DNA of 64,000 nucleotides from an uncultured virus (IMG/VR IMGVR_UViG_3300014204_000019) (lineage: Duplodnaviria > Heunggongvirae > Uroviricota > Caudoviricetes), in the IMG/VR virus record IMGVR_UViG_3300014204_000019. The stretch is one strand, 5' to 3'. This document shows, piece after piece, positions 602 to 64,000 of the stretch. Under the pieces are notes generated by a model. It was not told the origin of the DNA, ran no database searches, and saw only the letters and a program-made list of their open reading frames with translations. The translations under genes and the position numbers were made by a program. How positions within the stretch are numbered: the stretch's first letter is position 1; each line of letters begins with the position of its first letter.

Positions 602-1773
602 ACCGTGCAGGCTACCCACACTATACAAATCTTCTGTTCGCTTTGCCGTTAAGCGGTAGATTTCTTCCACCAGAAATAATGTTTGCTTTTCATTCGCTTG
701 CGATGCCAATGAACTACAACAACATCGTACAGACAACAAAAGGTATGAATGTCGCAGAAGCGCGTGAACAATTCGCGGACATCGCATTACAAAATAATTG
801 TAAATACATCTTCTTTTTAGATGAAGACGTTGCGTGTCCTCCACAAACAATACCAGAATTAATATATAAAATGGAACAAAACCCTGATATTGCAGTTTGT
901 GGTGGTGTATATTGTCTTAAACGTGATCCTTCTGAACCATTAATATTCATGGGAAATGGCAATGGTCCATTCTGGGATTGGAAGGTTGGAGATTTCTTTG
1001 AGTGTAGTGGTATAGGAATGGGTTGTACGCTTATAAGAGTGGAAGCATTAAAAGATCTTAAAAGACCATTCTTTAAAACCGTATATGATTATAGTAAAAT
1101 GATGGATTTCGGTGTTCCTGCATTAGAATCGTGGACAGAGGATTTATGGTTTTGTAAACGCATTTCTGATACGAAAAAATGGAAAGTATATGTTGATACT
1201 TCTATTATGTGTTTACATTATGATTTAAATACAGGAAAAGCATATAGTTTACCACAAGATTCTAAACCAATACAACATTTGACTACAAAAAAAGGAACAA
1301 AAAAGATCCTCGATATCGGTTCCATGTTATGCGAGAATGGTTATTATCAAACTTCCGAAGGAAATACAATAAAAGTAGATTATGATTCTCCTGATTCAAT
1401 AAACTCTGATTATAAGTGTGATCTGAGTAGACTTCCATTTGCGAATGAAGAGTTTGATATAGTATTTTCTCCTGCGTTAGAGTATTTTAATCGTTTGAAG
1501 GTAGAAAACGTTATTAAAGAGTGGAAAAGAGTTTTAAAGTCGAATGGAGAATTAAGACTTGTTGTTGAGAATTTAGAAAACGTCATAGACGCGGTAAAAA
1601 ATAACACAAAAGAGGTCTCTTGCCTTTTCCGCGGGAATACGAATAGATTACGTTGTAATGGTTTCACGAAAGATTATCTTAAACTTCTTTTAGAGAAGTG
1701 TGATTTTTCACCGAAAAGTATTGAATTTGTTCCATCCGACGCATTCCATATTGGTATAAGAGCGATAAAGTAA
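598..1773 (+). CDS. GT-A (GT2-like) glycosyltransferase fused to class I SAM methyltransferase
   Basis: IFFLDEDV DxD motif, GMGCTLI, TEDLWFC; C-terminal KILDIGS, LPFANEEFDIVFS, EWKRVLKSNGEL. Start placed at ATG 598 (after GGAGG, ATGA overlap with the HNH stop) rather than 586. Confidence 0.85.
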   Translation: MNRAGYPHYTNLLFALPLSGRFLPPEIMFAFHSLAMPMNYNNIVQTTKGMNVAEAREQFADIALQNNCKYIFFLDEDVACPPQTIPELIYKMEQNPDIAVCGGVYCLKRDPSEPLIFMGNGNGPFWDWKVGDFFECSGIGMGCTLIRVEALKDLKRPFFKTVYDYSKMMDFGVPALESWTEDLWFCKRISDTKKWKVYVDTSIMCLHYDLNTGKAYSLPQDSKPIQHLTTKKGTKKILDIGSMLCENGYYQTSEGNTIKVDYDSPDSINSDYKCDLSRLPFANEEFDIVFSPALEYFNRLKVENVIKEWKRVLKSNGELRLVVENLENVIDAVKNNTKEVSCLFRGNTNRLRCNGFTKDYLKLLLEKCDFSPKSIEFVPSDAFHIGIRAIK

Positions 1774-1782
1774 TTTAAAAAC

Positions 1783-1995
1783 ATGTTCCCGATATTGATT
1801 TATCCTTCTGATGTTCTGTCATGTGGTGATATAATCTTTAAACATATATCACCACATGTTTCTACAGCCTTAACAATAAATGATGAGTTAATAAACAAAA
1901 TATTTACATTTACAAACTTTTCTGACATTTTACGTATAACAAACACACCAAACACACTATTAACTATATCAAATACTGTCATTGCCACCGTATAA
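1783..1995 (+). CDS. hypothetical protein
   Basis: 70 aa ORF tightly packed between co-oriented genes. Confidence 0.5.
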   Translation: MFPILIYPSDVLSCGDIIFKHISPHVSTALTINDELINKIFTFTNFSDILRITNTPNTLLTISNTVIATV

Positions 1996-2004
1996 CATCC
2001 TATT

Positions 2005-2304
2005 ATGAACTACACAAAAGGTCAACTTGTTCATTGTAGTGCGGAATTTAAAGCTTATATTAACAGTGTATTAACATATGTTGATCCGGATGTAGTTTAT
2101 TTTAAATTTAAACGTCCTGGAGCGAATACTGTAACTTATACTTATGGTGTAGATGTACAACTTGTTAAAAGTGCCACCGGTAAATATTATGTAGACCTTG
2201 ATACTTCATCCTATACCGGAATATGGTATTATAAATTCTATTCTACCGGACAATATCAATCCGCGCAACAAGATGAGTTTATTGTAGAAGTAGATAAAGT
2301 ATAA
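2005..2304 (+). CDS. small beta-rich protein, probably virion-associated
   Basis: TGKYYVDLDT...GIWYYKF Ig-like pattern; just upstream of portal. Confidence 0.5.
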   Translation: MNYTKGQLVHCSAEFKAYINSVLTYVDPDVVYFKFKRPGANTVTYTYGVDVQLVKSATGKYYVDLDTSSYTGIWYYKFYSTGQYQSAQQDEFIVEVDKV

Positions 2305-2332
2305 TTTAATACGTTATTATTTAATAAAAACT

Positions 2333-3865
2333 ATGTCTGATATAAATACAGCACCAAATAAAGTATCTGATTTAACACAAATAACAAACATATCAGATAA
2401 TAGTGTATCCCAAGCATTTTCTTCTTCCGCGATAATACCATTACCAATAAAACCACCTGCACCGCAACTATCCTTAGAGTTACCTGATTTTTCAGAATAC
2501 GGTAAAACCGGTATACGACGTTTTACTGGTCGTGTTTATGAGGAATTTCTTACTTCTCTCCGCGGATTATCTGGTGTTCGTATATATCGAGAGATGTCAG
2601 ATAATGATGATGTTATTGGAGCATCATTAAATGCGATCGAAAGACTCGTTGCACAAACATCATGGACTGTAGAACCATATGATTCTTCTGTTGAATGCAA
2701 AAAAGACGCGCAGTTCCTTGAAGAATGTAGATCCGACATGGAACATTCATGGTCAGATTTCATTCTTGAAGCAAATTCGTGTCTTATTTATGGTTGGTCT
2801 CTTCTTGAAGAGTGTTATAAACTTCGTAAAGGTGATAATGTAGATAAAAGAATCAATAGTAAATATAATGACGGTTTAGTGGGTTGGAGAAAATTTTCTC
2901 GTCGTATGCAAAGCACTCTTTACATTTGGGATTTTGAGGATAACGGCGATATCCGCGGGATGATACAAAATCCTCCTCCAGAGTATATATTTCGTTATGT
3001 ACCATTAGACAAATCCTTATTATTTCGTACAAAAATAGAAGGCAACAACCCTGAAGGACGTAGTATTTTACGTAATACTTATAAATCGTATTATTTTAAA
3101 AAATCAATACAGATTATTGAGGCAATAGGAATTGAACGTGATCTTGTTGGAATTCCGATTTTAACACCCCCTGATACGTGGGACATAACTGATCCCAAAA
3201 ATAAGTCTTTATTGGAATTTGCACGTAAGCTTTTATCAAACTTAAGAAGAGATGAACAAGAAGGTGTGTTTCTTCCTCCGGGATGGTTATTATCGCTTTT
3301 ATCAAGCGGAAATAGCCGAAGACAATTCGACACAGATAAAATTCTAAATAGATATGATAAAAGAATTGCAATAACACTTCTTGCTCAATTTATTATGCTA
3401 GGAATGGATCGCGTAGGATCGTTTGCGTTATCGAAGAATCAAGGAGACTTGTTTAACATCGCAGTTCAATCCTATATAAATAGGATGGCTGATACAATAA
3501 ATAAAGACGCAATACCACGTTTATTTAGAATGAATCCTAGTTTAGGAAAAGGAAATAAATTACCAAAACTTATTCCGTCAAATGTTGCCGCACCCAATCT
3601 AACAGAACTCGCATCGTATATTAATGCTTTAGCAAAAGCGAATGTTCTTCCTACAGACAATGAAACATTAGTTTCCGCACTTGTTAGACTTGGTGGTTTT
3701 TACACTGGAAACGAAGCAAAAATCGGTGATTTATTTTCAAACACGATAGAAGATAAAGGAAAATACATCGGAAGTAATAAAGTGAAAAAACCTGCTCAAG
3801 TTTCCGATGTTAGTGTAAACGACAATTCCGATAAGGATGTTGAGTCACAATCAAAATTAACCTAA
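2333..3865 (+). CDS. portal protein (DUF935/Mu gp29-like)
   Basis: 510 aa; GNNPEGRSILR, IEAIGIERDLVGIP, GSFALS motifs; position before head genes. Confidence 0.88.
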   Translation: MSDINTAPNKVSDLTQITNISDNSVSQAFSSSAIIPLPIKPPAPQLSLELPDFSEYGKTGIRRFTGRVYEEFLTSLRGLSGVRIYREMSDNDDVIGASLNAIERLVAQTSWTVEPYDSSVECKKDAQFLEECRSDMEHSWSDFILEANSCLIYGWSLLEECYKLRKGDNVDKRINSKYNDGLVGWRKFSRRMQSTLYIWDFEDNGDIRGMIQNPPPEYIFRYVPLDKSLLFRTKIEGNNPEGRSILRNTYKSYYFKKSIQIIEAIGIERDLVGIPILTPPDTWDITDPKNKSLLEFARKLLSNLRRDEQEGVFLPPGWLLSLLSSGNSRRQFDTDKILNRYDKRIAITLLAQFIMLGMDRVGSFALSKNQGDLFNIAVQSYINRMADTINKDAIPRLFRMNPSLGKGNKLPKLIPSNVAAPNLTELASYINALAKANVLPTDNETLVSALVRLGGFYTGNEAKIGDLFSNTIEDKGKYIGSNKVKKPAQVSDVSVNDNSDKDVESQSKLT

Positions 3866-3894
3866 GTAGCCAATTAACTTTTTAAGAGAAAATC

Positions 3895-4653: not shown

Positions 4654-6039
4654 ATGTATAAAAAATTATTTTTCTTTCTATTTCTCGTTATTGTTTTCAC
4701 GCACGCTGTTGTTTTAAGTTATGCGGATACTCGTACACCTCCGATGATTGTAATGGATAAACCTACAATTACAATAGCAGGAGCTTCAACGTATAGCACA
4801 ACTTCTGTAACAACCGGAGTTCATGAAGCAAACGTTCAATTTAAATTTAATACTGTTGCTGGAACATATACTGGTTGTACTGTACAAGCTTATACTACAA
4901 TTGATGGTATAAATTATTTAACATTTGGTTCTGCACAAGCTGTTACTGTTACTACAGGTACGATAAATACGTGGACACTGGTGGAAACCGCGCCATCATC
5001 TAGTGTATCGAGTACTGCTGCCGCCGGATTTGGAGTATATACAAAATATAAATTTTCTTGTGCTGCTGCGTATGGAACATCCGCAAACACATCTATTTCT
5101 GTAATATATTACCCAAATGGTATATCAGCACAAAGTTTAGACCCGTCAGCGAGTCCGGTGTTTGCAGGTCTTACTATACCAACTTTAACTAGTACAATAT
5201 TAAAAACAACATCTGCTGGTGTTGTTACATCTTCAACGGCTGGTGTTGATTATCTCGGAGGTTCCGGAACGTCTAATTATATTCCAGTATTTACTGGTGT
5301 CAAAACTATAGGTAATAGTGGAATATTTTCTACAAACGGAAAATATGGCTTTGGTACAACCAATCCGGATTTGGATTTAACTGTAGAAAAAACATTAAGT
5401 AGTACAGGTTTCGTTGGTGTAAGTTTGGCTGGTAGAATTAATACATCAAGAATGCATTATTCTTCTTTTGTAATACAGCCTGGAACATACGGAGATGAGA
5501 CTGCACGGACAGTGTTTACTGCGGCATCACCAACAGCTACATCTACGGCAGGTGAATTTGATATCTTGACGGAAGATAGTGGACACTATCTTTTAAAATC
5601 AGTATACGTTGATAGTAGTGGATCATATTTACAATTATATGATACAACTGCACCAAAAGTGTCATTAAGTACTTATGGTAATAGTTATATTTTAGTGGGA
5701 AATGTAGGTCTTGGTACTACAGCACCAACTACGAAAATGCATGTTGTTGAGTCAACTACATTGAGTGCTGGAATTACTGATGGTTATACAGCAGCTATGA
5801 CGTTATCGCCAGCGTATGATCAAGGATTTACTGTAACACGTCATAATTATATAGAAGTGGATAATCCTGTTTTAACAAATTCCGCGGCTGTTACAGATGC
5901 AGTCTTATTCAGATTTAATGACTCTGAAGCAAATCATAAAGTTTTATCTGCTGCCGGTGCTGGAAATTGTCCTGTTGGTGCTGCCGGTTGTGTAAAAATT
6001 AACATAAATGGTACTATTAGAGTGTTACCATATTATTAA
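4654..6039 (+). CDS. Ser/Thr-rich fibre/adhesin-like protein with N-terminal signal-peptide-like segment
   Basis: MYKKLFFFLFLVIVFTHAVVLSYA; GKYGFGTTNP and GNVGLGTTAP fibre-type repeats. Confidence 0.6.
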   Translation: MYKKLFFFLFLVIVFTHAVVLSYADTRTPPMIVMDKPTITIAGASTYSTTSVTTGVHEANVQFKFNTVAGTYTGCTVQAYTTIDGINYLTFGSAQAVTVTTGTINTWTLVETAPSSSVSSTAAAGFGVYTKYKFSCAAAYGTSANTSISVIYYPNGISAQSLDPSASPVFAGLTIPTLTSTILKTTSAGVVTSSTAGVDYLGGSGTSNYIPVFTGVKTIGNSGIFSTNGKYGFGTTNPDLDLTVEKTLSSTGFVGVSLAGRINTSRMHYSSFVIQPGTYGDETARTVFTAASPTATSTAGEFDILTEDSGHYLLKSVYVDSSGSYLQLYDTTAPKVSLSTYGNSYILVGNVGLGTTAPTTKMHVVESTTLSAGITDGYTAAMTLSPAYDQGFTVTRHNYIEVDNPVLTNSAAVTDAVLFRFNDSEANHKVLSAAGAGNCPVGAAGCVKININGTIRVLPYY

Positions 6040-6930: not shown

Positions 6931-7836
6931 ATGGCCTTTCTTAAAGATGTAAATGTTAAACTTGTTTCTTTTGTTAGAAAAGCAGCTAATAAAAGAACTT
7001 TTACGTTGATGAAGTCTGCTGATTCGGATTCTGATTCTATTATTAATGAGGATAATGAAAAAAATAATGAGGTATACAAACCGATGAGAAAAGAAGTAAA
7101 AGCAGCAATTCTTAAGATGGTGAATTTATTTAAATCGGCGGATTCTACAGTCACACCAGATAATATGGTAGAAACGCTTAAGTCTGATGATACACTTAAA
7201 TTGTCTGAGAATGAAATTGTGGAAATCGCTGATCATGTTGAAATGTTAAAAGCTGGTTTTCCTTTTGTTTCTCCGGAGGAGAAGAAGAAAAAGGAAGCTG
7301 AAAATAAAAAGAAAGAGGAAGGAAATAATCTAGTTATGAAGACTGAAGAAGCTGATGAGTTAAAAAAATCGCATGATGCACTAAAGGAAGAAATCATTTC
7401 TTTGAGAAAAGCTCTTACTGATATTACAAAAGCATCAGAAAGACAAGATGTGATGCTATTTCTGCAAAAAGAGTGCGCGTTCCTTCCAGAAGACGTTGAA
7501 AAGACCGCAGAAACTATTTTGGAGCTTTCCGCGGTAAGCCCTAAAATGGCAACCGCGCATAAAGAAACTTTGAAAAAAGCATCGGCTGCTATAGAACAAT
7601 CCAATCTTTTTAAAGAGATTGGAAGTTCTACCGATGCAATACTTAAATCCGAGTCAGAAGTAGAGGGTTTTGATCTCATTAAACAATTTTCTACTTCTCT
7701 TGAAACTATTAAAAAATCGGCCGATGGAAAACCTATTTCATCTGATTCTATCGCAAATCTAGTAAAAGGTTTTGGTCCACAGTATAACGCTTATAGAGAA
7801 GCGCACATTTTGAGAGCGAAAAGAAACGCGATTTAA
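6931..7836 (+). CDS. head scaffold-like protein
   Basis: LKDVNVKLVSFVRKAANKRTF N-terminus followed by charged coiled-coil; between protease and capsid genes. Confidence 0.65.
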   Translation: MAFLKDVNVKLVSFVRKAANKRTFTLMKSADSDSDSIINEDNEKNNEVYKPMRKEVKAAILKMVNLFKSADSTVTPDNMVETLKSDDTLKLSENEIVEIADHVEMLKAGFPFVSPEEKKKKEAENKKKEEGNNLVMKTEEADELKKSHDALKEEIISLRKALTDITKASERQDVMLFLQKECAFLPEDVEKTAETILELSAVSPKMATAHKETLKKASAAIEQSNLFKEIGSSTDAILKSESEVEGFDLIKQFSTSLETIKKSADGKPISSDSIANLVKGFGPQYNAYREAHILRAKRNAI

Positions 7837-7901: not shown

Positions 7902-8288
7902 ATGGCTCTTGAACAGATTGTTTGTAAAATCGGTCTTAAAGCTCTTTCCGATTTGAGCACAAAACAGTTTTATGCATTACAGCTCATTTCTGGTACAGAT
8001 TATGGTTGTAATCTTGCGACTGCGTCAACACAAAAACCAGGTGGTGTGTTACAAAATAAACCTACCTCTGGAAAAGCCGCGGATTCTGTATTTGTTGGTT
8101 TAACTAAAGCGGTTGCTGGTGGTACAATACATGTAGGTGATCGTGTTACAGCAACCTCTGATGGCACGTTTGTTGCTACAACCACCGCAAAAGATTTTAC
8201 GTGGGGTTATAGTTTAACCGAAGCTTCTTCTGGTGATGTTTTCTCGTTTTTTGCAAATATCGCTGGTGGAAGAGATAGTGGAAATTAA
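7902..8288 (+). CDS. capsid decoration/cement protein (DUF2190-like)
   Basis: 128 aa Gly/Ala/Thr-rich; GVLQNKP, AGGTIHVGDRV; directly before major capsid. Confidence 0.75.
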   Translation: MALEQIVCKIGLKALSDLSTKQFYALQLISGTDYGCNLATASTQKPGGVLQNKPTSGKAADSVFVGLTKAVAGGTIHVGDRVTATSDGTFVATTTAKDFTWGYSLTEASSGDVFSFFANIAGGRDSGN

Positions 8289-10064: not shown

Positions 10065-10529
10065 GTGACATTTTCATATACTTGCCGACCGGCTACTAAT
10101 AAACTTGATGAGATGAGATTTCTTTTATCTGATAAGGATGAAGAAACTCATCTCATCGAGGATGAGGAACTTCAATATTTAATGTTGAAGTATGGTGATA
10201 ACGTTGATGTCGATAACGTTAATATAAATGCTGCGTGTGCCGCGGCGTGTGATATTATGGCATCAACATGGGCACGAAAACAAACAATTCGTGTAAGCAA
10301 TTATAATAGTGAAGTTGATAATGTTTTTATAAAACTTATTGAACGTGGAAAAATGTTCCGTCGGAATGCGGTAACAACGGAGCATTTTGTAGTACCTTCA
10401 ATAAGTGTAACGGATAAACAAACGAATATAGATGATAGTGATGCTACGGATGCATCATTTAAAAGAAATCTATTTGACAATCCGCAGGCTCCTTCAGATC
10501 CATATGAGGAAGCTAATACTTTAACGTAA
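10065..10529 (+). CDS. head-tail connector protein
   Basis: EMRFLLSD.....IEDEELQYL pattern; position after capsid. Confidence 0.6.
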   Translation: MTFSYTCRPATNKLDEMRFLLSDKDEETHLIEDEELQYLMLKYGDNVDVDNVNINAACAAACDIMASTWARKQTIRVSNYNSEVDNVFIKLIERGKMFRRNAVTTEHFVVPSISVTDKQTNIDDSDATDASFKRNLFDNPQAPSDPYEEANTLT

Positions 10530-13304: not shown

Positions 13305-13724
13305 ATGGGCTTTAAGGTAAATAAGACTATTTCCGCGGAAAAAACAGAAGAGATTATCATCCCACTAAATGTAAACGTAATGTACGAAGATGATACATTA
13401 AAGGAAGGTGAAGAAAAACCATCTTCTCTGGAAGTTTTTCATGTTATGAGAATTCCTACAATACAAGAACGTGAAAAACAACAACAAATGTTAATCAAAG
13501 TCCGCGGGAATAATATTAAAACGGCTGGAAGCGCGGAAGCATGGTTTTGGCTGTGGAAACAATGTATGATACGACTTGAAGGTTATGACGAACTTCCAGC
13601 CGAACGTGGTCTTATAATAAAATTATTTGAAGAATCAACACTTCTACACATTCATGCAGAGAATGCTGCTGTAGCTTTACTTAATCATATTAATGGTTCG
13701 GAGGGCGAAATAGGAAAAAAATAA
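13305..13724 (+). CDS. tail assembly chaperone (gpG-like)
   Basis: between tail tube and tape measure; ends in GGA AAA AAA TAA slippery site. Confidence 0.8.
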   Translation: MGFKVNKTISAEKTEEIIIPLNVNVMYEDDTLKEGEEKPSSLEVFHVMRIPTIQEREKQQQMLIKVRGNNIKTAGSAEAWFWLWKQCMIRLEGYDELPAERGLIIKLFEESTLLHIHAENAAVALLNHINGSEGEIGKK

Positions 13725-17921: not shown

Positions 17922-19079
17922 ATGACAATCCCAGTTCTACCATATATTCCGTCGATGGGAATAAAACATTCTCTTGTACGTCAATTTATATCTAATCCTA
18001 TGAATGATGGATATATAATTGAGAATTCCGCGGATTTGGCGTATCCGCATTCTGATGGAACTGCAAATATTAGTATATACCCGGGGCAGAATCGTTTTGA
18101 GATTGGTTTTAAACGAACATTATACGGTTCAGGACAATTAGCTAACCTTTTATGGGATTTTTTTCTTACACGTCTTGATAATATAAACGAACCATTCTAT
18201 TTCTATAATTGTCCAATAGAACGTGCAACACCAGATTTAACTGGTGTTGATACGGTTGGAAGATACTTTGTAAAACTAGAAGACCCAAATCAAGTGTTAA
18301 ATAGACAACTGTTTCTTTTTTGTCTCTATTCGTACTCTTTTGCTTTTATAGAGAATAAAAATCTTAATACCATCGATTATTTAGCAATCGCTCCACCGTG
18401 GTCGTATTGGAAAATGGATGAAGTAGGAAATGCTATAAGAGCAGACCAAAGTGGATATGGTAGAGATTTAACACCATCTACAGGATTACCGGAAGTAACG
18501 GAAATGGTGGGTAAAATAGGTAATAGTGTATTATTTATTGCAGATCCCGGTGGTTCAGCTGGTTTAACATTAAATAGTAAAACAATAGATTTATCCAGTA
18601 ATAAAGAAGTATTTATTTCATTCTGGTTTAAGTGGGATCGTGTAAATGTAGGTGCCGCAACAGCGATAATAATAAGTACAGGTTCTAGCGGTTTAAAGAT
18701 TTCCGCTGTAGTTGCTGTTGGTAGTAGTGCTGGTAATATTACATGCACCACACCCACTTTATCGATTGCTTCAGCAAACGTGATAACAGAAGGAAATTGG
18801 CATCTTATTCAAGTTTATTATGATGGTGAAAAGCTAGTTTTACAGATAAATAATACCTTTGATACGAATAATTTTAGTTATGTTATAGGTGATTCTAAAA
18901 TTATTTATCAAGTTTCAGATGTTTTTACTATAGCATCATTTACACCAGTAAATATCTGTAATATGCATATTGATGAATCAGGTATATGGGATGGTATTGA
19001 TGCTATTACAATGATAAATCAGAAAAAGGTGCTGTATAATAGTGGAAATGGCTTAACGTATCCGATCGTATTAGTATAA
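17922..19079 (+). CDS. minor tail protein: distal-tail-like domain plus LamG/concanavalin-like domain
   Basis: follows tape measure; SYWKMDE, FISFWFK, NWHLI, IDESGIW LamG signature. Confidence 0.7.
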   Translation: MTIPVLPYIPSMGIKHSLVRQFISNPMNDGYIIENSADLAYPHSDGTANISIYPGQNRFEIGFKRTLYGSGQLANLLWDFFLTRLDNINEPFYFYNCPIERATPDLTGVDTVGRYFVKLEDPNQVLNRQLFLFCLYSYSFAFIENKNLNTIDYLAIAPPWSYWKMDEVGNAIRADQSGYGRDLTPSTGLPEVTEMVGKIGNSVLFIADPGGSAGLTLNSKTIDLSSNKEVFISFWFKWDRVNVGAATAIIISTGSSGLKISAVVAVGSSAGNITCTTPTLSIASANVITEGNWHLIQVYYDGEKLVLQINNTFDTNNFSYVIGDSKIIYQVSDVFTIASFTPVNICNMHIDESGIWDGIDAITMINQKKVLYNSGNGLTYPIVLV

Positions 19080-19097
19080 TTTAGTACGGATAAAATA

Positions 19098-40265: not shown

Positions 40266-41359
40266 CTAACCCGCTTTTTTCTCATTAATAAACTTATCCG
40301 TTTCTTTAACTTCGATTTTATCAACAGCACTTAAATTCTCTTTTAAATCTATTTCTACAACCTTTTTAGTGTCTGAATCCTCAAATAATTCAAAAGGTGA
40401 CCATTTCACTATATCAAAAGAACCCTCAACCAACAATTGTAGCATAAGATCATTCTTACACATGCATAATCGACGGTATTCGCATTCTCCGTATTTTCCC
40501 ATACAACTATTTGTTTCCATCGGGAAACCGTCTACACCTTCAGATATACTTTGTGAGATTTGTTTAAGCTGATAGTTTACATGTGACATGTGTTGTATAA
40601 GTTGCGAATCTGTACGTTCTGTTTCAACACGATCGAATAGTTTATCGGAAGTTTCCGTGGGATCGCCTCTTTTGTAATCTTTAACACGAATACCGTTAAT
40701 TAGTGCAGTATTTACTGGTTGTCCTAGGTATTCGGATGCGGCGAATAAATATTTTGATATTTGATTGTTTGGATTAAATTGCGCTTTCCATTTATCAGAT
40801 AGAAGGCTTTTTGTAGTTTTATGGTCTATAACTACAAGTTTATTATTATAATTTATCTTTCCGAGCAGATCTATAAGTCCTATTATTATACCGTTAGGAA
40901 GATCGAGCGCAAATCCGGTTTCAGTATAAGGTAAACCAGAAGAATCCCGAAGAACTGTGAAATACTCCTTATCTAAAGGATGATATTCTTTATATTTTTT
41001 ACACAGAATAAACGCGAATTCCGCGGAATATTCTTGAAGCAAACCGCTATCTATAGCAAGTTGACGTGTTGTCGCGATTCTGGAGTTCTTTTTAAACGCG
41101 CTTTTACAGAATGCTTCAAAACAAACATCAAATGTATAATCACCTGTATAGTACAATTCTAAAAATTTGTGAAAAGCGGTTCCAAAAGTCAATGATACCT
41201 TTTCCACCTTCTCGTGTAAGGATAAAAGCACGCGATATAGAAATTTTCGTTGGCACTCTTCGAAAACAGAAAGCGAGGAATTATCCATAACTATAACATC
41301 GGGATTTTTTTCCGCACATATTATGTTAGTTAGATTATCATTTAGATAATTACTTGTCA
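40266..41359 (-). CDS. PD-(D/E)XK Cas4/RecB-like exonuclease
   Basis: SSLSVFEECQRK, FGTAFH, GLIDLL...VIDHKT, C.....CEY..LC; start placed at MTSNY (ORF track start 41414). Confidence 0.85.
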
Positions 41360-47778: not shown

Positions 47779-48360
47779 TCAAGAAAGAAGATCCCTTAAC
47801 ATCTTTGCGACTTCAACTTCCGCAACGTGTAATCTATTAAGATAGATTCTATTTTCCTCAATGATAAGTTCTTTATTTTCGAGCATTTCTTTTAACCTCT
47901 CATTGAATAAAAGAACGTTTTGCTTCTTACATTCTTTTTCAAGAATTGTTGTGTTAAGATATACGTTACCGAAATTCTTATTTGTTTCAAGTACGCTAAG
48001 TATTAATGCCCGTTGTCGTCGAGGATCTTCGGATTTATAAGACAATTGTTTTGCACAATTGTCTGCTTTTGTGAAACCGAAACCTTCAATCTCCATAAGT
48101 TTATATACATTTTCTTTGAAGAGAATGTCATATATAAACTTCATGCCGAAGTAATCGATTGCTTTTGCAACTAGGGTTTCACCTAGTCCGATCGATTTAA
48201 GATTTTTGATAAGATCAGGATTTTCCGCGGCATAAGATTTATATTGGGTTTTGATGTCAATTTCATCGGTGTTGTTATCATCTGTGATATTATTATCAGC
48301 TTGTAATATAGACGACGAATTTTTTTTACTTATATCTACATCTTCAAAATTTATTTCCAT
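47779..48360 (-). CDS. RecD2-like N-terminal helix-hairpin-helix domain as a separate gene
   Basis: GLG..L..K...YFG, ENVYKLMEIEGFGFTKAD..A, DPRR.RA, GNVYL, IYL..L..AE.EVA. Confidence 0.85.
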   Translation of the reverse strand: MEINFEDVDISKKNSSSILQADNNITDDNNTDEIDIKTQYKSYAAENPDLIKNLKSIGLGETLVAKAIDYFGMKFIYDILFKENVYKLMEIEGFGFTKADNCAKQLSYKSEDPRRQRALILSVLETNKNFGNVYLNTTILEKECKKQNVLLFNERLKEMLENKELIIEENRIYLNRLHVAEVEVAKMLRDLLS

Positions 48361-49875: not shown

Positions 49876-51082
49876 TCAAGATATTTTATTTTTTGTTTCC
49901 CGTAATATTACTTTATAAGTGCTATAAAATGTTGGATGTACATTTATAAAGCACATAACATTTATCCACGCTGTTTGTAAAGAAAACGAAAGAATCACTA
50001 ATGTATATTTCTTTCGTGACTCTTTTTCCATGTCGTAATAAAAGATTATAAAGGTATATTCATTCATAAGTTTGTTTATCCTTCTTTTGATGTGTACATT
50101 ATGATGAAAAAGTCATCACTTTTTGTAAACAAGTTTGATGTTTTTTGTGTTTCTTTAAGTAATTCAGATGTTACAAGTCGATAGTTTTGTAACGCTTTTT
50201 TGATGACAACGATGTTTTCGGCGGATAGTTTTATTTTTCTATATGTGGAAGAAGAACGTTTCGAAGTTTTTGAGGTTTTTGGGTTTTTTGAGGTTTTTTG
50301 TTCTGTTTCTTTTATTTCTTTTTCTAAATTTGACTTTTCCGCGGTAATAGATAATAAATCAGATTGTGTCATTTTTGTTTCCTTTCGTTTTATTACACTA
50401 TATTATTCTTAATATAGTGTTCTTACAAAGTATATGTAAATTTGCGTTTGTTTGCATATTTACCTCATAAATTTAATTGTTTATTAAATTTTATTGTCCT
50501 GAATGCTCTTTTAATAAATGCATAAAAGAGCTTCAGCAATACGAAAATCACAGCAATATCTAATAAAAGCGGATACATCTTTTTGTTCGATTAAAACCAC
50601 ATACTCATTTCCTTGATAAGCAACAATCTTAATACTTGGAAAAGTATCAGTTAAATCAACTAATACTTTTTCATATTCATAAGCGTGTATTTTATATATA
50701 AATATATTTTTACGACTTTTGCATAAAGGGCAAAAGTTTTCTTTAATCCTATAATATATTATAGGATGTTGTTCACCAAAAGATGAACCACCTTTGCATT
50801 TTATAAAATCTTTCATAAGATTATCCTTCTCTTTTTTTTATTTTGCATTAGTTTTCGATACTGTTTTAAACAATCTTTCCAGGAGGTATATACAAACCAT
50901 ATAAAGCATTTATCGTTTGCCAAAATCTCATATTGGGTAACGCTTTTATATACCACAATACGTATATTAACAGTACGATAGTGTACGTTGATTAAATTAT
51001 TAACCATTTTGGTTAATTGTGAGATTGTTGGAGCTTTAGAATTGCCGATTCGAAATATTTTATTTTCTTTTTCTTTTTTCAT
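49876..51082 (-). other. cluster of four small hypothetical early ORFs
   Basis: 49876..50067, 50076..50372, 50511..50816, 50813..51082. Confidence 0.5.
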
Positions 51083-51129: not shown

Positions 51130-54021
51130 TTATTCAATAACCCCGCACCAAATTATTCTACCATCCAGATCTCCAATCATACCTTGCCATTTTCCTACTT
51201 CTTTTTTATCTGTCAATGCCGGATCCCAAATCCAACCATTTTCATAATAAACCATATGTCTTTTATTCATTTCAACAAAATGAACTGAAAGAAACCCGCG
51301 TCCAGAAGTAGGAACTTTTACTTCTTGCATATTAAGGATTATTTTCTTTAAGGTTTCTTGCTGTGCTTTTATTTTTTCGTCGTCTTCAATATAAACAATA
51401 ATTTTGTATGGACGATATGTTTTATCAACGAATTCTTTATACTGTGAAGTCACAAATTCTCCACAATATTTTAACATAACTTTTTCCGCAACATCTAAAC
51501 TATAAACTTCATACGATTCACCCCAATTCGCTTCTCCAAGTTCTATTGAGTAATTTCTAACATCCTCAATAGAACTTTTAGATGCCATTGCAACGGAAGC
51601 AAGAAAGCACTCATTTTTACGTGGTGTTTCGAATTTTGTTGAGGAATTTACATTGTTAATTATAACAGCATCTTCGGAATCGTCATTTGCATTATTGTAA
51701 GTTATATGATCGTCGATGTTCTCTTTTGATAAAAGTTTAGGATCAAAACCTAAATTTTCTGTTAATGCGGCAGACATTGCTTTATTTGTCTTTAATGCCG
51801 CGATAACTTTTTCATCGATTGTATTCTTTGCTACTATATCTATTATCGTGAGTTTGTTTTGCATTCCAGGGCGGTGCGCTCTATCTTCAGACTGTGAACG
51901 TTCTACTTTTCTAAAAGAATTCGAAAAGTAAATCTCATATGATGCACCGATTAGATCTAATCCGGTTCCCGCGGCAACAACATGACCTACAAGAAAACGT
52001 AATTTATTATTTTTATCGTTGAATTCATTTTGTATTTGAAAACGTTTTGTAAAAGGTACGGATCCGTCAATTATCGCTACAGACTCTGGACCGTATAATT
52101 TAGATATGTTTTGTTTAAGTAAATGTAAGTCTTGTCGGAACTGTGACCATATAAGAAATTTACATTCTCCGTCATCAGCATCATCGATTGCTTCAAGAGT
52201 TTCATCAATTTTAGGATTTGATGGGAAATTTATTGCATTACCATATGAATCATATATCCATCCGTTTGCTGCTTCTGCTAATTTCATATTAAGTGCAAGA
52301 ATATGCGTTACACTGATTTTTTCACCTTTTCCTATTCTTTCGTCTAATTCCGCTTCAAGTTTATTCTTTAAATCGTCATATAGTTTTTGTTGTCCTGGAG
52401 ATAATTCCACAAGTCTTATTTCGTATGTTTTTTCTGGAAGATTCATACACTCTGATTTTTCGAAACGTAACGCACATGTTTCCATAAGTGTTCTCAATTC
52501 TTCCGTCGCGCCGTTCAACGGTTTATAAGACCAACCATCTTTTTTAAAATATTGTGATTTGAATTGACCATCAAGTTCACCATATGTTAATAATTTACTT
52601 GTGTCTGTGCGATGTGTTAAAATACTATTGAAGGTTTTTGCACCATTTAGAAATATAAATGGGCACTCAATATCATATAATTTATTTGCCGCGATAGTGC
52701 CGGACATAATTATTTTGTATGGTACTTCAAGAAATGCGTCGATTATATTTCCAGTGCGTTCGGCGGTTGGATTTTTTATTTTATGTACTTCATCGATTAT
52801 AACGAAGTCCCAATCGATACATTTAACAATATCAGCGAACTTTAATTCAACGTCTTCGCTATTATCATTTTTGAGCTTTGTTTTCATTGCGAATGCTTCA
52901 TAATTTATAAACTTCACGTCAACATCATTCAACATGATTTTTTGCATTCTTTCATAATATGAACCATCGACTATGATGGTTGAAAGATGCGGCGCATATG
53001 AAGCGAATGTGTTTTGTAATTGGATTAATGTTGCGGCGGGTGCTATATATAATACTTTGCCTTTACGACAAGTTTTTTCTTCATTAATTCGTGTATCAAT
53101 TGTCATAACGGTTGCAGGTGTTTTTCCTGTCCCCATTTGTGATAAATTCGCGAATTTCTTTAAACGCAATGAAACTTTCCACATTGTCCATTGATGATCA
53201 TAGGGTTTCCAATCTTTAACTGAAGTGTTTATTTTATACGTTTTTTCTGCTTCTGGTATACCGAACATACGATATGTTTTAATAAGTCGAACGGACTCTT
53301 TCATATAGTCTAATGATGGTTGAAGAAGACGCATAATTTCAGAAAGAATACCATTGCATTCAATCTCAACGTTAATAAGCTCGTTGTTGTACTCGATATT
53401 CTTGAATGTATAAATACTGTGTTTAAAGACTTTTTCTTTTTTGTTATTCGTCTTTATCTGTTTCTTAATATTAAAATCGATCTTTTGTTCTTTTAATAAA
53501 GCGTTAAGTTTATTTTTGAATTCAATAACCATTTGGTCTATTGATGATATTATATTTACTGAATCATCAAAGGAAAGATCTTGAATGTTATTCTCAAAAA
53601 TTCCATCGCTCACATTTTCAGTGGATTTTAATTGTGATATAATGGAATTTTTTACATTTGTGGAATTCACAGATAGTTGTTTTTGGAGTGCATTTAATAA
53701 AGCGGATTTTACCTTATCCGCCGGAACAGCAACTTCAATCGTGTTGATGTTATCGATTAGTTTTATCTCATCTTCATGAACATATGAAGATGCCGAATAA
53801 AACTTCAAATACGCTGGAAAGAATGGATAAAGTTCTTCACCATATTCGGTATAGCACATTCTACCGAACATTTTAACTAAAACTTTATGCTTATCCGAGT
53901 TATAAAAATCTTCATAACGTGGTTTGTTATTTTCATCTTTTGCAAACGTGAATTTAAGAAATTCTTCATTATCTTTGTTAAAATAGGCTTCGAGATACAT
54001 TGTTTTATTGTTATAAGACAT
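51130..54021 (-). CDS. SNF2-family helicase with C-terminal papain/C39-like domain
   Basis: MGTGKT, IIDEVH, MSGT, GTGLDL, QSEDRAHRPG; C-terminal NECFLASVAMA...HMVYYENGWIWDP. Confidence 0.88.
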   Translation of the reverse strand: MSYNNKTMYLEAYFNKDNEEFLKFTFAKDENNKPRYEDFYNSDKHKVLVKMFGRMCYTEYGEELYPFFPAYLKFYSASSYVHEDEIKLIDNINTIEVAVPADKVKSALLNALQKQLSVNSTNVKNSIISQLKSTENVSDGIFENNIQDLSFDDSVNIISSIDQMVIEFKNKLNALLKEQKIDFNIKKQIKTNNKKEKVFKHSIYTFKNIEYNNELINVEIECNGILSEIMRLLQPSLDYMKESVRLIKTYRMFGIPEAEKTYKINTSVKDWKPYDHQWTMWKVSLRLKKFANLSQMGTGKTPATVMTIDTRINEEKTCRKGKVLYIAPAATLIQLQNTFASYAPHLSTIIVDGSYYERMQKIMLNDVDVKFINYEAFAMKTKLKNDNSEDVELKFADIVKCIDWDFVIIDEVHKIKNPTAERTGNIIDAFLEVPYKIIMSGTIAANKLYDIECPFIFLNGAKTFNSILTHRTDTSKLLTYGELDGQFKSQYFKKDGWSYKPLNGATEELRTLMETCALRFEKSECMNLPEKTYEIRLVELSPGQQKLYDDLKNKLEAELDERIGKGEKISVTHILALNMKLAEAANGWIYDSYGNAINFPSNPKIDETLEAIDDADDGECKFLIWSQFRQDLHLLKQNISKLYGPESVAIIDGSVPFTKRFQIQNEFNDKNNKLRFLVGHVVAAGTGLDLIGASYEIYFSNSFRKVERSQSEDRAHRPGMQNKLTIIDIVAKNTIDEKVIAALKTNKAMSAALTENLGFDPKLLSKENIDDHITYNNANDDSEDAVIINNVNSSTKFETPRKNECFLASVAMASKSSIEDVRNYSIELGEANWGESYEVYSLDVAEKVMLKYCGEFVTSQYKEFVDKTYRPYKIIVYIEDDEKIKAQQETLKKIILNMQEVKVPTSGRGFLSVHFVEMNKRHMVYYENGWIWDPALTDKKEVGKWQGMIGDLDGRIIWCGVIE

Positions 54022-56322: not shown

Positions 56323-57054
56323 TTAAACTTTGTTTTCTTGACTTTTTACACCCAAATTCATAATCCTATTAAACTCGTTTTCATTCTCCTGTTCTTCAAG
56401 TTTTCTTTTTTCTTTTTCGATTTCTTCATTTGAGAGTTTATTTTCATTAAGTATCTCTAACGAATATCTCGCTTCTTGCGTTCGTAGTGAATCTATAAAA
56501 CCTGGAGAACTTTTAAGTAGTTCGATATTGGGATTTGTGGATTTAAAAGATGGTTTTTCTTTATTATTTTCTTCTACTGTGTTGTTTTGTTCCATTAAAT
56601 TTAAAAAATCTGCTAACGCGTTATTATTGCTTATACTTGCGTTTATACTTGCGTTTTCCGGATCCTTCAATGCAATGATTTCTTTTTCTTTTCTTATTAC
56701 TTGTTCTTTTGCGCGTTCTGCGTTCGCTATCATTTTTAAGGTAGCAAAATATTGTTTCTTTGGGGCAATCTTTTTTAATGTGATTAAGATATCGAGATTT
56801 TTAATAATCTCTTTTCTCTTTTCGATGTCTGTGATCACTTCAGCTTCAATCATCAACATGACATCTTTAACATCGTATGATTTTATGTCTTTTATTGCGC
56901 TTTCCGCGGGAATTCTCATACACTTATTACTTTCATCAAACTTGAAAGTTCCCAATTGTTTTGTTCGTGATATTCTATATTTAACCTCATTAGGAAGTAA
57001 AAACATATACATAACATTATCGTCAGAATTATTATTTCCGTTATTTTTTCGCAT
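56323..57054 (-). CDS. hypothetical protein, first gene of the leftward early arm
   Basis: AGGAG RBS; promoter 57147-57175 upstream. Confidence 0.7.
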   Translation of the reverse strand: MRKNNGNNNSDDNVMYMFLLPNEVKYRISRTKQLGTFKFDESNKCMRIPAESAIKDIKSYDVKDVMLMIEAEVITDIEKRKEIIKNLDILITLKKIAPKKQYFATLKMIANAERAKEQVIRKEKEIIALKDPENASINASISNNNALADFLNLMEQNNTVEENNKEKPSFKSTNPNIELLKSSPGFIDSLRTQEARYSLEILNENKLSNEEIEKEKRKLEEQENENEFNRIMNLGVKSQENKV

Positions 57055-60250: not shown

Positions 60251-60482
60251 ACTTTTTTTTCTGTTTGAAAAATACAAAATATTCTATAAAAATAGCGTAC
60301 TTGATCGAGCTTTAAAACACGTTGGTACCATGGAAGAAAGAAAGATTATTTATTAAGCAAGATGTATGAGAATTCCCGCGGAAAAGCATCATTTTACTTT
60401 AATCTTATATACTTATAAGTATAACATATAATGGATAGCACAAAATAGCACAAAATAGCACAAAACACATTCAAAAAATCTC

Positions 60483-61318: not shown

Positions 61319-62935
61319 ATGTCATCTTCATTATCAACTATTTCAAACTCAGACTTATCCGAACTTATTCGTACTCAAAGCACCTACGCTTTTAATTCTG
61401 AAAAATTTCTCTTTGATGTTCTTAAATTCAAATGTGTAAATTGGCAATCTCAAGCATGTTACGATTACGATACAAAAGGTAAATGTGCATGGTCTACCGG
61501 ATCTGGGGCAGGAAAAACAGCACTTCTAGCACGTTTAGCACTCCATTTTCTATACACTCGACCGTATGCTATTATTCCCTGTACAGCACCAACAAAAAAG
61601 CAACTATATAACGTTCTATGGGCTGAAATCGGACGTGCAATGTCCGAATCACCAATTATTCAATCACTCTTTGAGTGGCAACAAGAACGTATATTTTTTA
61701 AATCGCAAAAAGATAAGTGGTTTGCTGTAGCAATAACTTCTACACCACCGAAACCTGGTGCAATGACTACAGAATCACTTCAAGGTTATCATGCTGAAAA
61801 TATACTTTTTATCGTTGATGAATGTTCAGGCATATCCGATCAGGTAATGGGTGCTGCTGATGGTGCTATGTCTACACCATCCTCGCGTGCTATATTAGCA
61901 TCAAATCCTACACGAAATACTGGGTATTTTCATCGTGCAATGACAAATGACGTGCTCAAAGATCTTTGGTCGCGTATATTTGTAGATGTAGAGAAGATTG
62001 ATGCATTATATATCGATAAAACATCAATCGAACGACTTAAATTAATATATGGAGAAAATTCTGATTATTTCAGAATGCGTGTCCGCGGACTTCCGCCAAG
62101 AGCAGAATTTAATGCTCTGGTCTCACCAGAACAAATATTTGAAGCGCATAGACGTATAATAGAAAGATCCGGACAAATTTATTGCGGTTGTGATCCTGCA
62201 CGTTATGGTGATGATGATACTGTAATTTACATTCGTGATGGTAATGTCATAATTGAACGTGCATGTATTCATGGTCAATCCACTGTACAAGTCGTTGACA
62301 CGCTCATCGCTTTAGAAAATACATACAACTTTCAAGAAATCCGTATTGATATAATTGGAATTGGTTCTGGCGTACATGATGATTTAAAACGTCGTCTTAA
62401 AGAGAAATCTTACAAAGTGCGTGGTGTAGGTGTTGGAGAAGAAGCAAACGATAAAAATACATTTTTTAACAAACGCGCGGAAATAGTTTGGCAAGTACGT
62501 ACGATAATCGATTCACTATCAATTCCAATAGAAACACCACTTCTTGATGAAGAACTTTCTGTAATACACTATGGTTGGGATTCTAAAGATAAACGAATAA
62601 AAATCGAACCAAAAGATGAAACAAAACGTACGCTTAAACGTTCTCCAAATGACGCGGATGCACTTTGTTTAGTTTGTGCGAATCTTCTTACTTCGACTGG
62701 AATTGTAACATCTGAGTATTTTAAAATCGGTTCTACGAATCCACACGATGAGAATTTAATAAATGTGGTAAATAATATAAAAAACGACGGTGAAAGACCT
62801 AGAGCCGCATTAGATTTAGCTACCTTTCTCGGTAATAAAAGTGGGAAAGTGGGTTCAAAACGTTATAGTGAATTTTATTCTGACACAGAATCGAATAGTT
62901 TTGGTTTTTCGAATTCGTTTGGGGATTTTAATTAA
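61319..62935 (+). CDS. terL: terminase large subunit
   Basis: GSGAGKT Walker A, FIVDE Walker B, ASNP, GCDPARYGDD nuclease, SPNDADA. Confidence 0.93.
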   Translation: MSSSLSTISNSDLSELIRTQSTYAFNSEKFLFDVLKFKCVNWQSQACYDYDTKGKCAWSTGSGAGKTALLARLALHFLYTRPYAIIPCTAPTKKQLYNVLWAEIGRAMSESPIIQSLFEWQQERIFFKSQKDKWFAVAITSTPPKPGAMTTESLQGYHAENILFIVDECSGISDQVMGAADGAMSTPSSRAILASNPTRNTGYFHRAMTNDVLKDLWSRIFVDVEKIDALYIDKTSIERLKLIYGENSDYFRMRVRGLPPRAEFNALVSPEQIFEAHRRIIERSGQIYCGCDPARYGDDDTVIYIRDGNVIIERACIHGQSTVQVVDTLIALENTYNFQEIRIDIIGIGSGVHDDLKRRLKEKSYKVRGVGVGEEANDKNTFFNKRAEIVWQVRTIIDSLSIPIETPLLDEELSVIHYGWDSKDKRIKIEPKDETKRTLKRSPNDADALCLVCANLLTSTGIVTSEYFKIGSTNPHDENLINVVNNIKNDGERPRAALDLATFLGNKSGKVGSKRYSEFYSDTESNSFGFSNSFGDFN

Positions 62936-63018
62936 TTTTTCTTTTTAAAGAAAAACACGTTAAAAACACTTAAAAAATACTTAAAAAATACGTTAAAAAC
63001 ACGAAAAGGAGCACAATA

Positions 63019-63483
63019 ATGGGAATTATAAACAAAACCCGCGGAAAGTCAATGTTTGGCGATTATGATCTTATATCTCGTCCTGATATAGTCATTCGTC
63101 GTCGTGTTACTACGATCACAGCAACACAGCTTAAAGCATTAAACACGACACCGTTAGCAATAGTACCAGCACCTGGTGCAGGAAAAGTAAATGTTCCAAT
63201 GAATATATTCGCTAAGTATGTTTTTCTTACAACAGCTTTCACCGGATCAAATAATCTTGAATTTCGTTATACTTCTTCAAATGGTGCGAAAGTTTCCGCC
63301 GATATCGATGCTGCATTTTTACTTTCTGCGTCTGGAACAAATTATCGTAATGTTAATGCGGTTGTAACGGAACAAACTCCTGTTGTAAATGCTCCGATTG
63401 TGATAGACACACCAAGTTCAGACTTGGCTCAAGGTCTTGGATCATTAACGGTTCAAGTATTTTATCGTACTTTAACTGTATAA
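63019..63483 (+). CDS. putative virion protein
   Basis: AGGAG RBS; beta-rich, TP..IVPAPGAGK motif. Confidence 0.55.
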   Translation: MGIINKTRGKSMFGDYDLISRPDIVIRRRVTTITATQLKALNTTPLAIVPAPGAGKVNVPMNIFAKYVFLTTAFTGSNNLEFRYTSSNGAKVSADIDAAFLLSASGTNYRNVNAVVTEQTPVVNAPIVIDTPSSDLAQGLGSLTVQVFYRTLTV

Positions 63484-63513
63484 AACCTATTATATAATAT
63501 TGAAAGTAACAAA

Positions 63514-63699
63514 ATGCCAGCCGCTGATAGAATAAATTTAACCGAACAAACATCATGTTCACTTATTTGTGCAGTGTGTAAAAAACCTGTTTTTTTATCA
63601 GAAAAACATACTTGCGTTGATGATTTAATGCTTCAATTTTCAAAAGAGAACGAAAATAAAACTATTTTAAATTTAAACGCTAAAACTGCCGAGGAATAA
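63514..63699 (+). CDS. small Cys-containing hypothetical protein
   Basis: CAVC...HTC. Confidence 0.45.
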   Translation: MPAADRINLTEQTSCSLICAVCKKPVFLSEKHTCVDDLMLQFSKENENKTILNLNAKTAEE

Positions 63700-63707
63700 T
63701 AAATATT

Positions 63708-64000
63708 ATGCTACAATCCAATCTTCAAATCGCTTTAGATAAAATCAGATCTCGTAAATTTTCTGATGCTGATGTATCTTCTATTGAAGCACAGCTTGAA
63801 AATCATGAAAAACCATCCGATGTTATAGGACTTCGTGGTGGTATAGAAGTAATGTTGAAGAATTCCTTGAATAATGAAGTTCTTCTTCATGAAAAAGGTA
63901 AAAACGTCGTACTATACGTTGGACGTTCTTGGCTTATGCAAAAAATTGCATCCGCGGCAATGGATTCTACCGTACTTATAAATGCTAATATAGTAATTGG
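63708..64000 (+). CDS. partial ORF truncated by the window end, probably a virion protein
   Basis: hand-translated MLQSNLQ...LRGGIEVML...KNVVLYVGRSWL; no stop before 64000. Confidence 0.6.
   Translation, partial: MLQSNLQIALDKIRSRKFSDADVSSIEAQLENHEKPSDVIGLRGGIEVMLKNSLNNEVLLHEKGKNVVLYVGRSWLMQKIASAAMDSTVLINANIVI

Follow-up and report, generated by a model that had tools for sequence, protein, structure and literature searches.

CCGCGG as a highly iterated palindrome in one lineage of uncultured tailed phages

The palindrome CCGCGG occurs 30 times in the 64,000-base stretch of DNA analysed here (IMG/VR record IMGVR_UViG_3300014204_000019; hereafter 'the window'), which is the nearly complete genome of an uncultured tailed phage. 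It occurs 44 times in a sister phage, G002, whose 69,268-base record is rated complete and is colinear with the window at 66–81% nucleotide identity (75% for the pair as a whole). These counts correspond to 469 sites per Mb in the window and 635 per Mb in G002, an excess of about eight- to ten-fold in both over what the encoded proteins and the codon usage would predict. CCGCGG is a genuine highly iterated palindrome (HIP) of one phage lineage: the enriched unit is the exact hexamer, and neither codon usage nor amino-acid usage accounts for its excess. The explanation favoured here, with a probability of about 40%, is a HIP-type process acting at the DNA level and probably linked to methylation of CCGCGG by the host.

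The CCGCGG excess persists under compositional and codon-preserving nulls

An earlier reading of the window, made from its letters alone (the sequence-only reading), had listed 30 copies of CCGCGG; all were exact matches, and no further sites were present. It had put the G+C content at ~30% and the expected number of sites at about one. The G+C content is in fact ~33% overall (30–35% along the length) and about two sites are expected, but the large excess it described is real. Dinucleotide shuffles contained 2.1 ± 1.3 copies (100 shuffles, maximum 6), and the order-1 Markov expectation was 2.2. The remaining seven GC-only hexamer palindromes were present in 0–4 copies each; in G002, the 44 CCGCGG sites compared with two copies of the reversed word GGCGCC. 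The codon phases were also as previously described: 20 sites read as NCC GCG GNN, eight as NNC CGC GGN and one as CCG CGG, and one was intergenic. The words TTCCGCGGAA, TCCGCGGGAA and TCCGCGGA were found 3, 5 and 8 times in the window.

Genes were called with a simple heuristic that takes the longest open reading frame (ORF), and every codon-based test rests on these calls. Two versions of them, differing solely in the last ORF, counted 29 or 28 CCGCGG sites as coding. Against the 29 sites observed in genes, synonymous-codon shuffles gave 3.10 ± 1.75 when codons were pooled genome-wide and 3.74 ± 1.75 when they were shuffled within genes, while shuffling the order of the codons gave 2.49; in each case none of 1000 shuffles reached 29. 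When all 4096 hexamers were ranked against within-gene synonymous shuffles, CCGCGG came first in both phages (window, 28 vs 3.7 expected, z 12.9; G002, 42 vs 5.8, z 16.0). The hexamers ranked after it (CGCGGA, GCCGCG, TCCGCG and TTCCGC) all overlap the motif. CCGCGG filled 28 of the 164 synonymously permissible positions in the window and 42 of the 174 in G002 (17–24%), and ~30% of x-Arg-Gly positions carried it. A general excess of CGCG was rejected as the cause, CCGCGG making up 30 of the 119 NCGCGN sites in the window and 44 of the 121 in G002.

Markov models of higher order raised the expectation to 8.5 (order 3) and 18.1 (order 4, the maximal order). The latter value is inflated because the pentamers from which it is built mostly belong to the motif itself: 30 of the 50 CCGCG words and 30 of the 43 CGCGG words fall inside CCGCGG. 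At this order the excess still had z values of 4.6 (window) and 5.2 (G002). The sequence-only reading had named a codon-preserving null, or a Markov null aware of CGCG and CCGC, as what might explain the count away; the excess persisted under all the nulls run.

That the excess is an artefact, whether of assembly, CpG richness, codon usage or the composition of the proteins, has next to no probability. CpG is mildly over-represented (rho 1.26), GCG is a common alanine codon (281 of 1151) and the order-4 expectation is high, all of which such an artefact could draw on. It is refuted by the codon shuffles (codon-preserving expectations of 2.5–3.7), the hexamer ranking and the maximal-order Markov test. 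Further, the excess is also present in the independently assembled G002, and identical pieces of the contig were recovered in two metagenomes. The codon shuffles, the hexamer ranks and the occupancy of permissible positions, together with the codon conservation described below, place the origin of the excess at the DNA level rather than in codon or amino-acid usage, as the sequence-only reading had suggested.

CCGCGG sites turn over between sister phages and are preferentially kept

Nine of the 24 window sites that can be aligned with G002 were kept there as CCGCGG, and the same nine were found among the 27 alignable G002 sites. The others were lineage-specific (15 window-only and 18 G002-only), indicating that both lineages have gained or lost many sites. 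Many of the partner sequences lay one transition away from the motif, CCGCAG, CTGCGG and TCGCGG being examples. Where the amino-acid context was unchanged, six sites were common to both phages, seven were window-only and three were G002-only.

Despite this turnover, retention was high. The proportion of CCGCGG sites kept in G002 (9/24) compares with 8/89 for other GC-only hexamers (Fisher p 0.0017) and 86/762 for hexamers with five G/C (Fisher p 0.001); CCGCGG was kept about four times as often (odds ratio 6) as other GC-only hexamers. Codons lying within the motif were conserved in 13 of 24 cases, vs 3.9 expected from the behaviour of the same codons elsewhere. The difference was seen for both CGC (4/8 within the motif, 1/25 elsewhere) and GCG (9/14 and 45/191). 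In-motif codon conservation is the test that was applied to HIP1 by Xu et al. (2018, PMC5861425); here the retention test rests on one genome pair, the window and G002. CCGCGG sites are both created and preferentially kept, and what is maintained is their density, not their position.

Two outgroup fragments, L012 (7.3 kb) and L013 (4.1 kb), encode terminases 77% and ~59% identical to that of the window and contain no CCGCGG sites (11 kb in all). The large terminases of the window and G002 are 84% identical, and that of L012 is 77% and 76% identical to these two, which places L012 outside the pair. Polymerase relatives at 24–29% identity showed no excess: three with 38–43% G+C have 0–1 sites, and one with 63% G+C has 17 vs 19.6 expected. 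From these comparisons, the trait appears confined to the clade formed by the window and G002.

The gaps between sites (Table 1) matched random placement, both in their coefficient of variation (CV) and in the largest gap, whether the null was uniform or limited to permissible positions. With the circular gap included, the CV was 0.90 in the window and in G002. Site density was alike in the structural and replication modules. A regular arrangement, such as priming or Okazaki-type sites would show, was rejected because the spacing is random, and promoter-like or 5′-end placement within genes was dropped as not significant (p 0.06–0.4).

Random placement, rapid turnover and restriction to one lineage would all suit a neutral, methylation-independent substitution or repair bias of the lineage's own replication and repair machinery, which would create or restore CCGCGG without any function. 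Several one-step neighbour words are raised 2–2.8x, as proto-sites or decayed sites would be, and the phage's own family A polymerase is fused to a UDG-superfamily domain that might be part of such machinery. However, the other GC-only palindromes are not raised, and no polymerase or glycosylase is known to have a bias specific for a six-base palindrome. A bias of this kind is an unlikely source of the excess.

Two of the sites lie in the arms of a perfect 22-nt inverted repeat (window 56901–56922 and 60363–60384), with a CCGCGG in each arm and 3440 nt between the arms. The two arms, of which one lies within an early gene and one between genes, flank a strand-switch region and AT-rich repeats. 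They may form a regulatory pair, serve for recombination or delimit an invertible segment; no gene for a recombinase was detected.

The sequences flanking CCGCGG are informative

Flank statistics were obtained from the 148 half-sites that make up the 74 sites of the window and G002. T was preferred at positions −1, −2 and −3 (52–66% of half-sites) and A was commonest at −4, while G was nearly absent at −3 (3/148) and A was avoided at −1 (14/148). Flanks and core together give the consensus ATTTCCG-CGGAAAT. Sequences within three mismatches of this 14-mer numbered 14, vs 4.59 expected, and none of 100 shuffles reached 14. The core was intact in 11 of these near-matches; the remaining three combined good arms with a mismatched core, no more than expected by chance. 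One of the 30 sites came within one mismatch of the 14-mer, six within two and 11 within three. The flanking arms are a tendency and no more than that.

A CpG six bases from CCGCGG was seen at 25 of the 148 half-sites, vs ~3% near other CCG words. These CpGs at −6 were unevenly distributed, with 21 in the left flank and four in the right in window orientation, irrespective of the strand of the gene.

A dispersed protein-binding site was among the mechanisms put forward in the sequence-only reading. The protein could be an unannotated one of the phage or come from the host, and the function would be set by the density of sites and not by their position. Such sites might mark phage DNA as self, load a ParB/Noc-type clamp, serve compaction or protect from a helicase-nuclease. 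That the flanks are informative over ~14 bp, with about three times the expected near-matches to the 14-mer, speaks for this proposal; that the exact hexamer and not the longer site is enriched, good arms with a mismatched core being at chance level, speaks against it. The ParB and Noc clamps load at parS (TGTTTCAC-GTGAAACA) and at the Noc-binding site, NBS (TATTTCCC-GGGAAATA), respectively, the latter being dispersed in many copies (Jalal et al. 2020, PMC7383237). The phage consensus ATTTCCG-CGGAAAT departs from that of NBS in just one place per half-site, its central base (PMC7383237). In the phage, however, the arms are not conserved like the centre, the central hexamer being the invariant unit, and no ParB/Noc-family protein was detected. 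Nor was KorB or any other candidate reader found at E ≤ 0.001 in a search of 95/95 window ORFs, of which ~60 are without a family assignment.

Retention above control words and the amino-acid changes that accompany many sites would likewise be compatible with a binding site, and the RecD-like helicase and PD-(D/E)XK nuclease of the phage could use a self-mark. CCGCGG is also ~15 times denser in the phage than in the metagenome-assembled genomes (MAGs) considered below as candidate hosts. Random spacing and the lack of positional bias within genes count against a binding site, which is regarded as possible, if rather doubtful.

CCGCGG is also enriched in an unrelated phage fragment

In IMG/VR, 118 stretches matched the 14-mer consensus, and 80 of the loci were examined. 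At 27 of these 80 the ascertained site was the sole CCGCGG. Among the 80 loci examined of the 118, L090 alone stood out. This phage fragment, 4273 bases long and 40% G+C, encodes a small and a large terminase and an SPP1-type portal; similarity to the window or to G002 was not detectable. It contains seven CCGCGG sites vs 0.44 expected, every other GC-only palindrome being present 0–1 times. Six of the sites are coding, vs 1.07 under synonymous shuffles (0/2000 reach six), and all six are in the NCC GCG GNN phase. Five other contigs were counted as whole records, and none was clearly enriched (6 vs 4, 6 vs 0, 4 vs 8, 9 vs 13 and 18 vs 2).

That unrelated phages are enriched in one and the same hexamer points to an external factor common to them, and its recurrence suggests a general phenomenon. 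It is hard to explain by the machinery of one lineage, as a neutral bias would require, since the replication genes of these phages differ, and a binding site would need a reader shared between them. Hyper-iteration of CCGCGG might also be a recurrent trait of phage genomes (this clade and L090) that is not copied from the host, the word acting as a self-mark read by a protein. Candidate readers would be, for example, a ParB/Noc-like clamp, whose site is one base per half-site off, or a helicase-nuclease of the phage that leaves marked DNA intact. This last proposal seems distinctly improbable.

A proposed HIP-type process linked to host methylation

The HIP-type explanation supposes that a DNA-level process would create exact CCGCGG at scattered places tolerated by the protein sequence, and that a site, once present, would be retained far above comparable GC-rich words. 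The driver would be a CCGCGG-specific cytosine methyltransferase acting on phage DNA; since neither phage encodes one, this putative enzyme would come from the host. Methylation might act together with biased repair or with selection favouring methylatable sites, a coupling of the kind suggested for HIP1 and the alternate HIPs. SacII-type restriction-modification systems recognise CCGCGG, and the gain and loss of the trait over a short evolutionary distance is what would be expected from a mobile host methyltransferase.

The likeness to the HIPs of cyanobacteria is considerable. As described in passages of Elhai (2015, PMC4390886), these occur at 500–2500 sites per Mb, a range that includes G002, with the window just under it; in the phages a site comes about every 1.5–2 kb. 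Besides HIP1 (GCGATCGC), cyanobacteria have the alternate HIPs GGCGCC, rCCGGy and GCsGC (PMC4390886; PMC5861425), which are sporadic in single lineages, as CCGCGG is here (PMC4390886). In the window and G002, as with HIPs, a GC-rich palindrome is the top k-mer outlier and overlapping words come next (PMC4390886). Every codon phase is represented, codon usage does not account for the excess, and the sites are conserved beyond control words despite turnover, in the one genome pair compared (PMC5861425). There are also differences. The genomes here are those of 64–69 kb phages, vs cellular chromosomes there, and the word CCGCGG is not among the HIPs named in the passages of Elhai drawn on here. 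For HIP1 a periodic chromosomal spacing is described (PMC5861425); here the gaps match random placement, a genome of 64–69 kb being too short to reveal periods as long as those of HIP1.

Of the three mechanisms raised by the sequence-only reading, the HIP1-like one fits best, yet a number of observations weigh against it. Searches of the window with Pfam (95/95 ORFs), PHROGs (93/95), NCBIfam (46), PADLOC (74) and catalytic-motif patterns revealed no gene for a DNA methyltransferase, Vsr or a restriction endonuclease. Nor did a Pfam search of G002 reveal any of these (82/110 ORFs, the others being orthologous to window genes that carry an annotation). In the passages of Elhai (2015, PMC4390886) on alternate HIPs, a cognate methyltransferase was found in every genome bearing one, unlike in the ORFs searched here. 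Further, words one C-to-T step from CCGCGG are not depleted against the codon-aware expectation, the values for the window and G002 being 1.1x and 2.2x for CTGCGG/CCGCAG, 2.4x and 2.0x for TCGCGG/CCGCGA, and 1.6x and 1.1x for CCGTGG/CCACGG; this argues against a classical Vsr mechanism. The flanks carry information, which a type II methyltransferase would not obviously need. Amino-acid differences accompany 18 of 28 lineage-specific sites, a pattern that fits selection as well as drive; several of these differences are Lys/Arg exchanges that give rise to CGC GG.

The genomes of possible hosts add to these objections. A scan of species genomes for ThyX gave three AT-rich MAGs with a copy 51–52% identical to that of the phage, which is a weak link. 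These MAGs have 55–84 CCGCGG per 1.8–2.6 Mb vs 31–41 GGCGCC, the link being too weak for a test of the host. Throughout their phylum (26 species), nothing near the phage excess was seen; the ratio was at most three- to four-fold, and flanked forms were far sparser.

Examples of such ratios are the species genomes G023 and G024, with CCGCGG counts of 1113 vs 334 and 1294 vs 331. They contain 103 and 133 copies of TCCGCGGA vs two and five of the reversed control, a contrast that reflects in large part how rare the control is and not an excess of the motif. When window positions 1–20000 were searched as DNA against the 26-genome class of the ThyX MAGs, there were just chance-level matches of 28–43 nt, the best of which lay outside any CRISPR array.

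Vsr repair at Dcm-type sites leaves CCWGG over-represented in E. coli. There too, a palindromic methyltransferase target is over-represented through repair that acts irrespective of coding. The phage excess (8–10 fold) is, however, far larger than the Dcm/Vsr effect, T-containing neighbour words are not depleted, and no vsr or dcm-like gene was found in the phage. Chi, KOPS (FtsK-orienting polar sequences) and DNA-uptake sequences are over-represented words by which DNA is marked as self; they have a polarity, being asymmetric and aligned with the direction of replication or uptake. Like them, CCGCGG is short and dense across the genome, with density counting over position. It differs in being palindromic, its sole polarity being the weak one-sided CpG at −6 (21 vs 4, 74 sites). 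A k-mer search found no co-oriented Chi-like word, and this candidate was rejected.

The sequence-only reading had also suggested that CCGCGG might be the target of a phage DNA modification; this idea gained nothing from the gene content. Sequence-specific hypermodification could in principle be carried out by phage enzymes: three glycosyltransferases (GTs), two of them fused to S-adenosylmethionine (SAM)-methyltransferase domains, are encoded along with ThyX, and all are conserved in G002. The methyltransferase domains, however, match small-molecule/sugar families and not DNA methyltransferases. In G002 the GT2-methyltransferase gene adjoins a rhamnosyl O-methyltransferase (CmcI family, E 8e-57), and the GT/methyltransferase genes adjoin structural genes. 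Judged by these families, they look sugar-modifying and probably serve glycan or virion glycosylation/modification. Nor is there a reason why a modification target would be selected for frequency. Hypermodification of CCGCGG is accordingly given only a very slight chance.

Phages are usually expected to avoid short palindromes, and the hyper-iteration of CCGCGG runs counter to this. Literature searches found no account of an excess of CCGCGG, or of a HIP-like excess, in phages; the work of Rusinov et al. from 2018 reportedly treats avoidance, at least in part. In cyanobacteria, highly iterated palindromes have been a puzzle for decades, with function set against a by-product of repair. The phages described here provide a small system with a HIP-like density, in which gain, loss and retention can be measured against a sister and in which no DNA methyltransferase was found. 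It splits the HIP puzzle into two questions, namely whether methylation occurs at the word, and whether the word is iterated in the host as well.

The phage genome and its relatives

The window has genes for a portal, a protease, a major capsid protein, tail proteins and the small and large terminase on one side. The replication module, on the other side, encodes a family A DNA polymerase, a primase/helicase, a SNF2 helicase, a RecD-like helicase, a PD-(D/E)XK nuclease, a Sak4-like protein and ThyX. About 90% of the window is coding according to the ORF calls made here, and no tRNA genes were found in it. AGGAG, a Shine-Dalgarno-like sequence, precedes 41 of the 95 window ORFs, which is a weak argument as to the host. 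A megablast search against cultured phages gave no match; the best protein identities were 29–43%, and the hosts of these relatives are mixed.

The same DNA was present in one landfill and one groundwater metagenome run from different studies. Contig pieces from these runs showed zero differing letters relative to window positions 25000–44999, which is uninformative on the gain or loss of sites; going by this identity, essentially one phage genotype occurs in both habitats. A further record, G001, is the same phage, 99.75% identical to window positions 24939–40516 (15.6 kb) with all 11 CCGCGG sites in common, and being near-identical adds no comparative information. When IMG/VR was searched with a terminase alignment and with the polymerase, terminase and SNF2 proteins, just G001, G002, L012, L013 and distant polymerases were recovered, and two metagenome scans gave no new relatives.

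Table 1. CCGCGG sites and other features of the window. Codon contexts are given as amino acids; 'window-only' and 'kept' refer to the comparison with G002.
Position	Strand	Feature or context	Comparison or remark
1629..1634	.	CCGCGG; GT2+methyltransferase gene, NNC CGC GGN, F-R-G	window-only; G002 TTACGG, amino-acid difference
2560..2565	.	CCGCGG; portal gene, L-R-G	window-only; G002 TCGTGG, synonymous difference
2953..2958	.	CCGCGG; portal gene, I-R-G	kept
5882..5887	.	CCGCGG; S-A-A	region not alignable to G002
7529..7534	.	CCGCGG; S-A-V	window-only; amino-acid difference in G002
8077..8082	.	CCGCGG; A-A-D	window-only; G002 CCGCAG, synonymous difference
10240..10245	.	CCGCGG; A-A-A	window-only; G002 CTGCTG, synonymous difference
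13333..13338	.	CCGCGG; S-A-E	window-only; best extended palindrome of all sites (ATTTCCGCGGAAAA)
13502..13507	.	CCGCGG; V-R-G	window-only
18028..18033	.	CCGCGG; S-A-D	kept despite differing flanking residues (T-A-E)
25732..25737	.	CCGCGG; small minus-strand ORF	not alignable to G002
27051..27056	.	CCGCGG; GT2 gene, A-A-A	kept
30389..30394	.	CCGCGG; S-A-D	not alignable to G002
31489..31494	.	CCGCGG; thyX, S-A-E	kept
32362..32367	.	CCGCGG; P-A-D	window-only; amino-acid difference in G002
33907..33912	.	CCGCGG; primase/helicase gene, S-A-D	kept
34015..34020	.	CCGCGG; primase/helicase gene, A-A-A	kept
36570..36575	.	CCGCGG; DNA polymerase gene, sole phase-0 site (CCG CGG, P-R)	window-only
36788..36793	.	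CCGCGG; DNA polymerase gene, P-A-D	window-only; one synonymous transition in G002
37342..37347	.	CCGCGG; DNA polymerase gene, Y-R-G	window-only; synonymous difference
37699..37704	.	CCGCGG; DNA polymerase gene, R-R-G	kept
41021..41026	.	CCGCGG; PD-(D/E)XK nuclease gene, S-A-E	kept
48225..48230	.	CCGCGG; A-A-E	window-only
50339..50344	.	CCGCGG; T-A-E	not alignable to G002
51969..51974	.	CCGCGG; SNF2 helicase gene, A-A-G	window-only; one synonymous transition
56904..56909	.	CCGCGG; P-A-E	within left arm of the 22-nt inverted repeat; outgroup L012 CGGCGG
60376..60381	.	CCGCGG; sole intergenic site	within right arm of the 22-nt inverted repeat
62083..62088	.	CCGCGG; large terminase gene, V-R-G	kept, the one terminase site common to both phages; same R-G specified by different codons in L012 (CGA GGG) and L013 (AGA GGA)
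63039..63044	.	CCGCGG; T-R-G	window-only; G002 ACGCGG, synonymous difference
63952..63957	.	CCGCGG; S-A-A, ORF running off window end	window-only
35370-37805	-	family A DNA polymerase	N-terminal UDG-superfamily domain, residues 36-183, E 4e-16
55166-55837	-	pentapeptide-repeat protein, early region	resembles Qnr/MfpA-type proteins
45116-46297 and 47779-48360	-	RecD2-like helicase core and HHH_RecD2 domain	separate ORFs ~1.5 kb apart
586-1773, 26941-27660, 27778-29445; plus L010 1422-2240		GT genes	window: three GTs, two fused to SAM-methyltransferase domains; G002: added CmcI-type gene

RecD2-like functions appear to be split over two ORFs, and G002 is arranged likewise. The pentapeptide-repeat protein of the early region may act as a DNA mimic. 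In place of the HNH endonuclease of the window, G002 has an added CmcI-type rhamnosyl O-methyltransferase.

Dense non-coding repeats occupy window positions 59680–60250, immediately upstream of the small terminase gene. These comprise short tandem units of the TATCC type (59879–59946), several direct repeats of 25–55 nt and long A/T tracts (60140–60222), and the region looks like an origin or control region. The terminase ORF of L013 (positions 1151–4024) is 957 aa long, vs 538 aa in the window, with ~1.2 kb extra between the parts that align with the window; the additional sequence is possibly an intein or a homing-endonuclease insertion.

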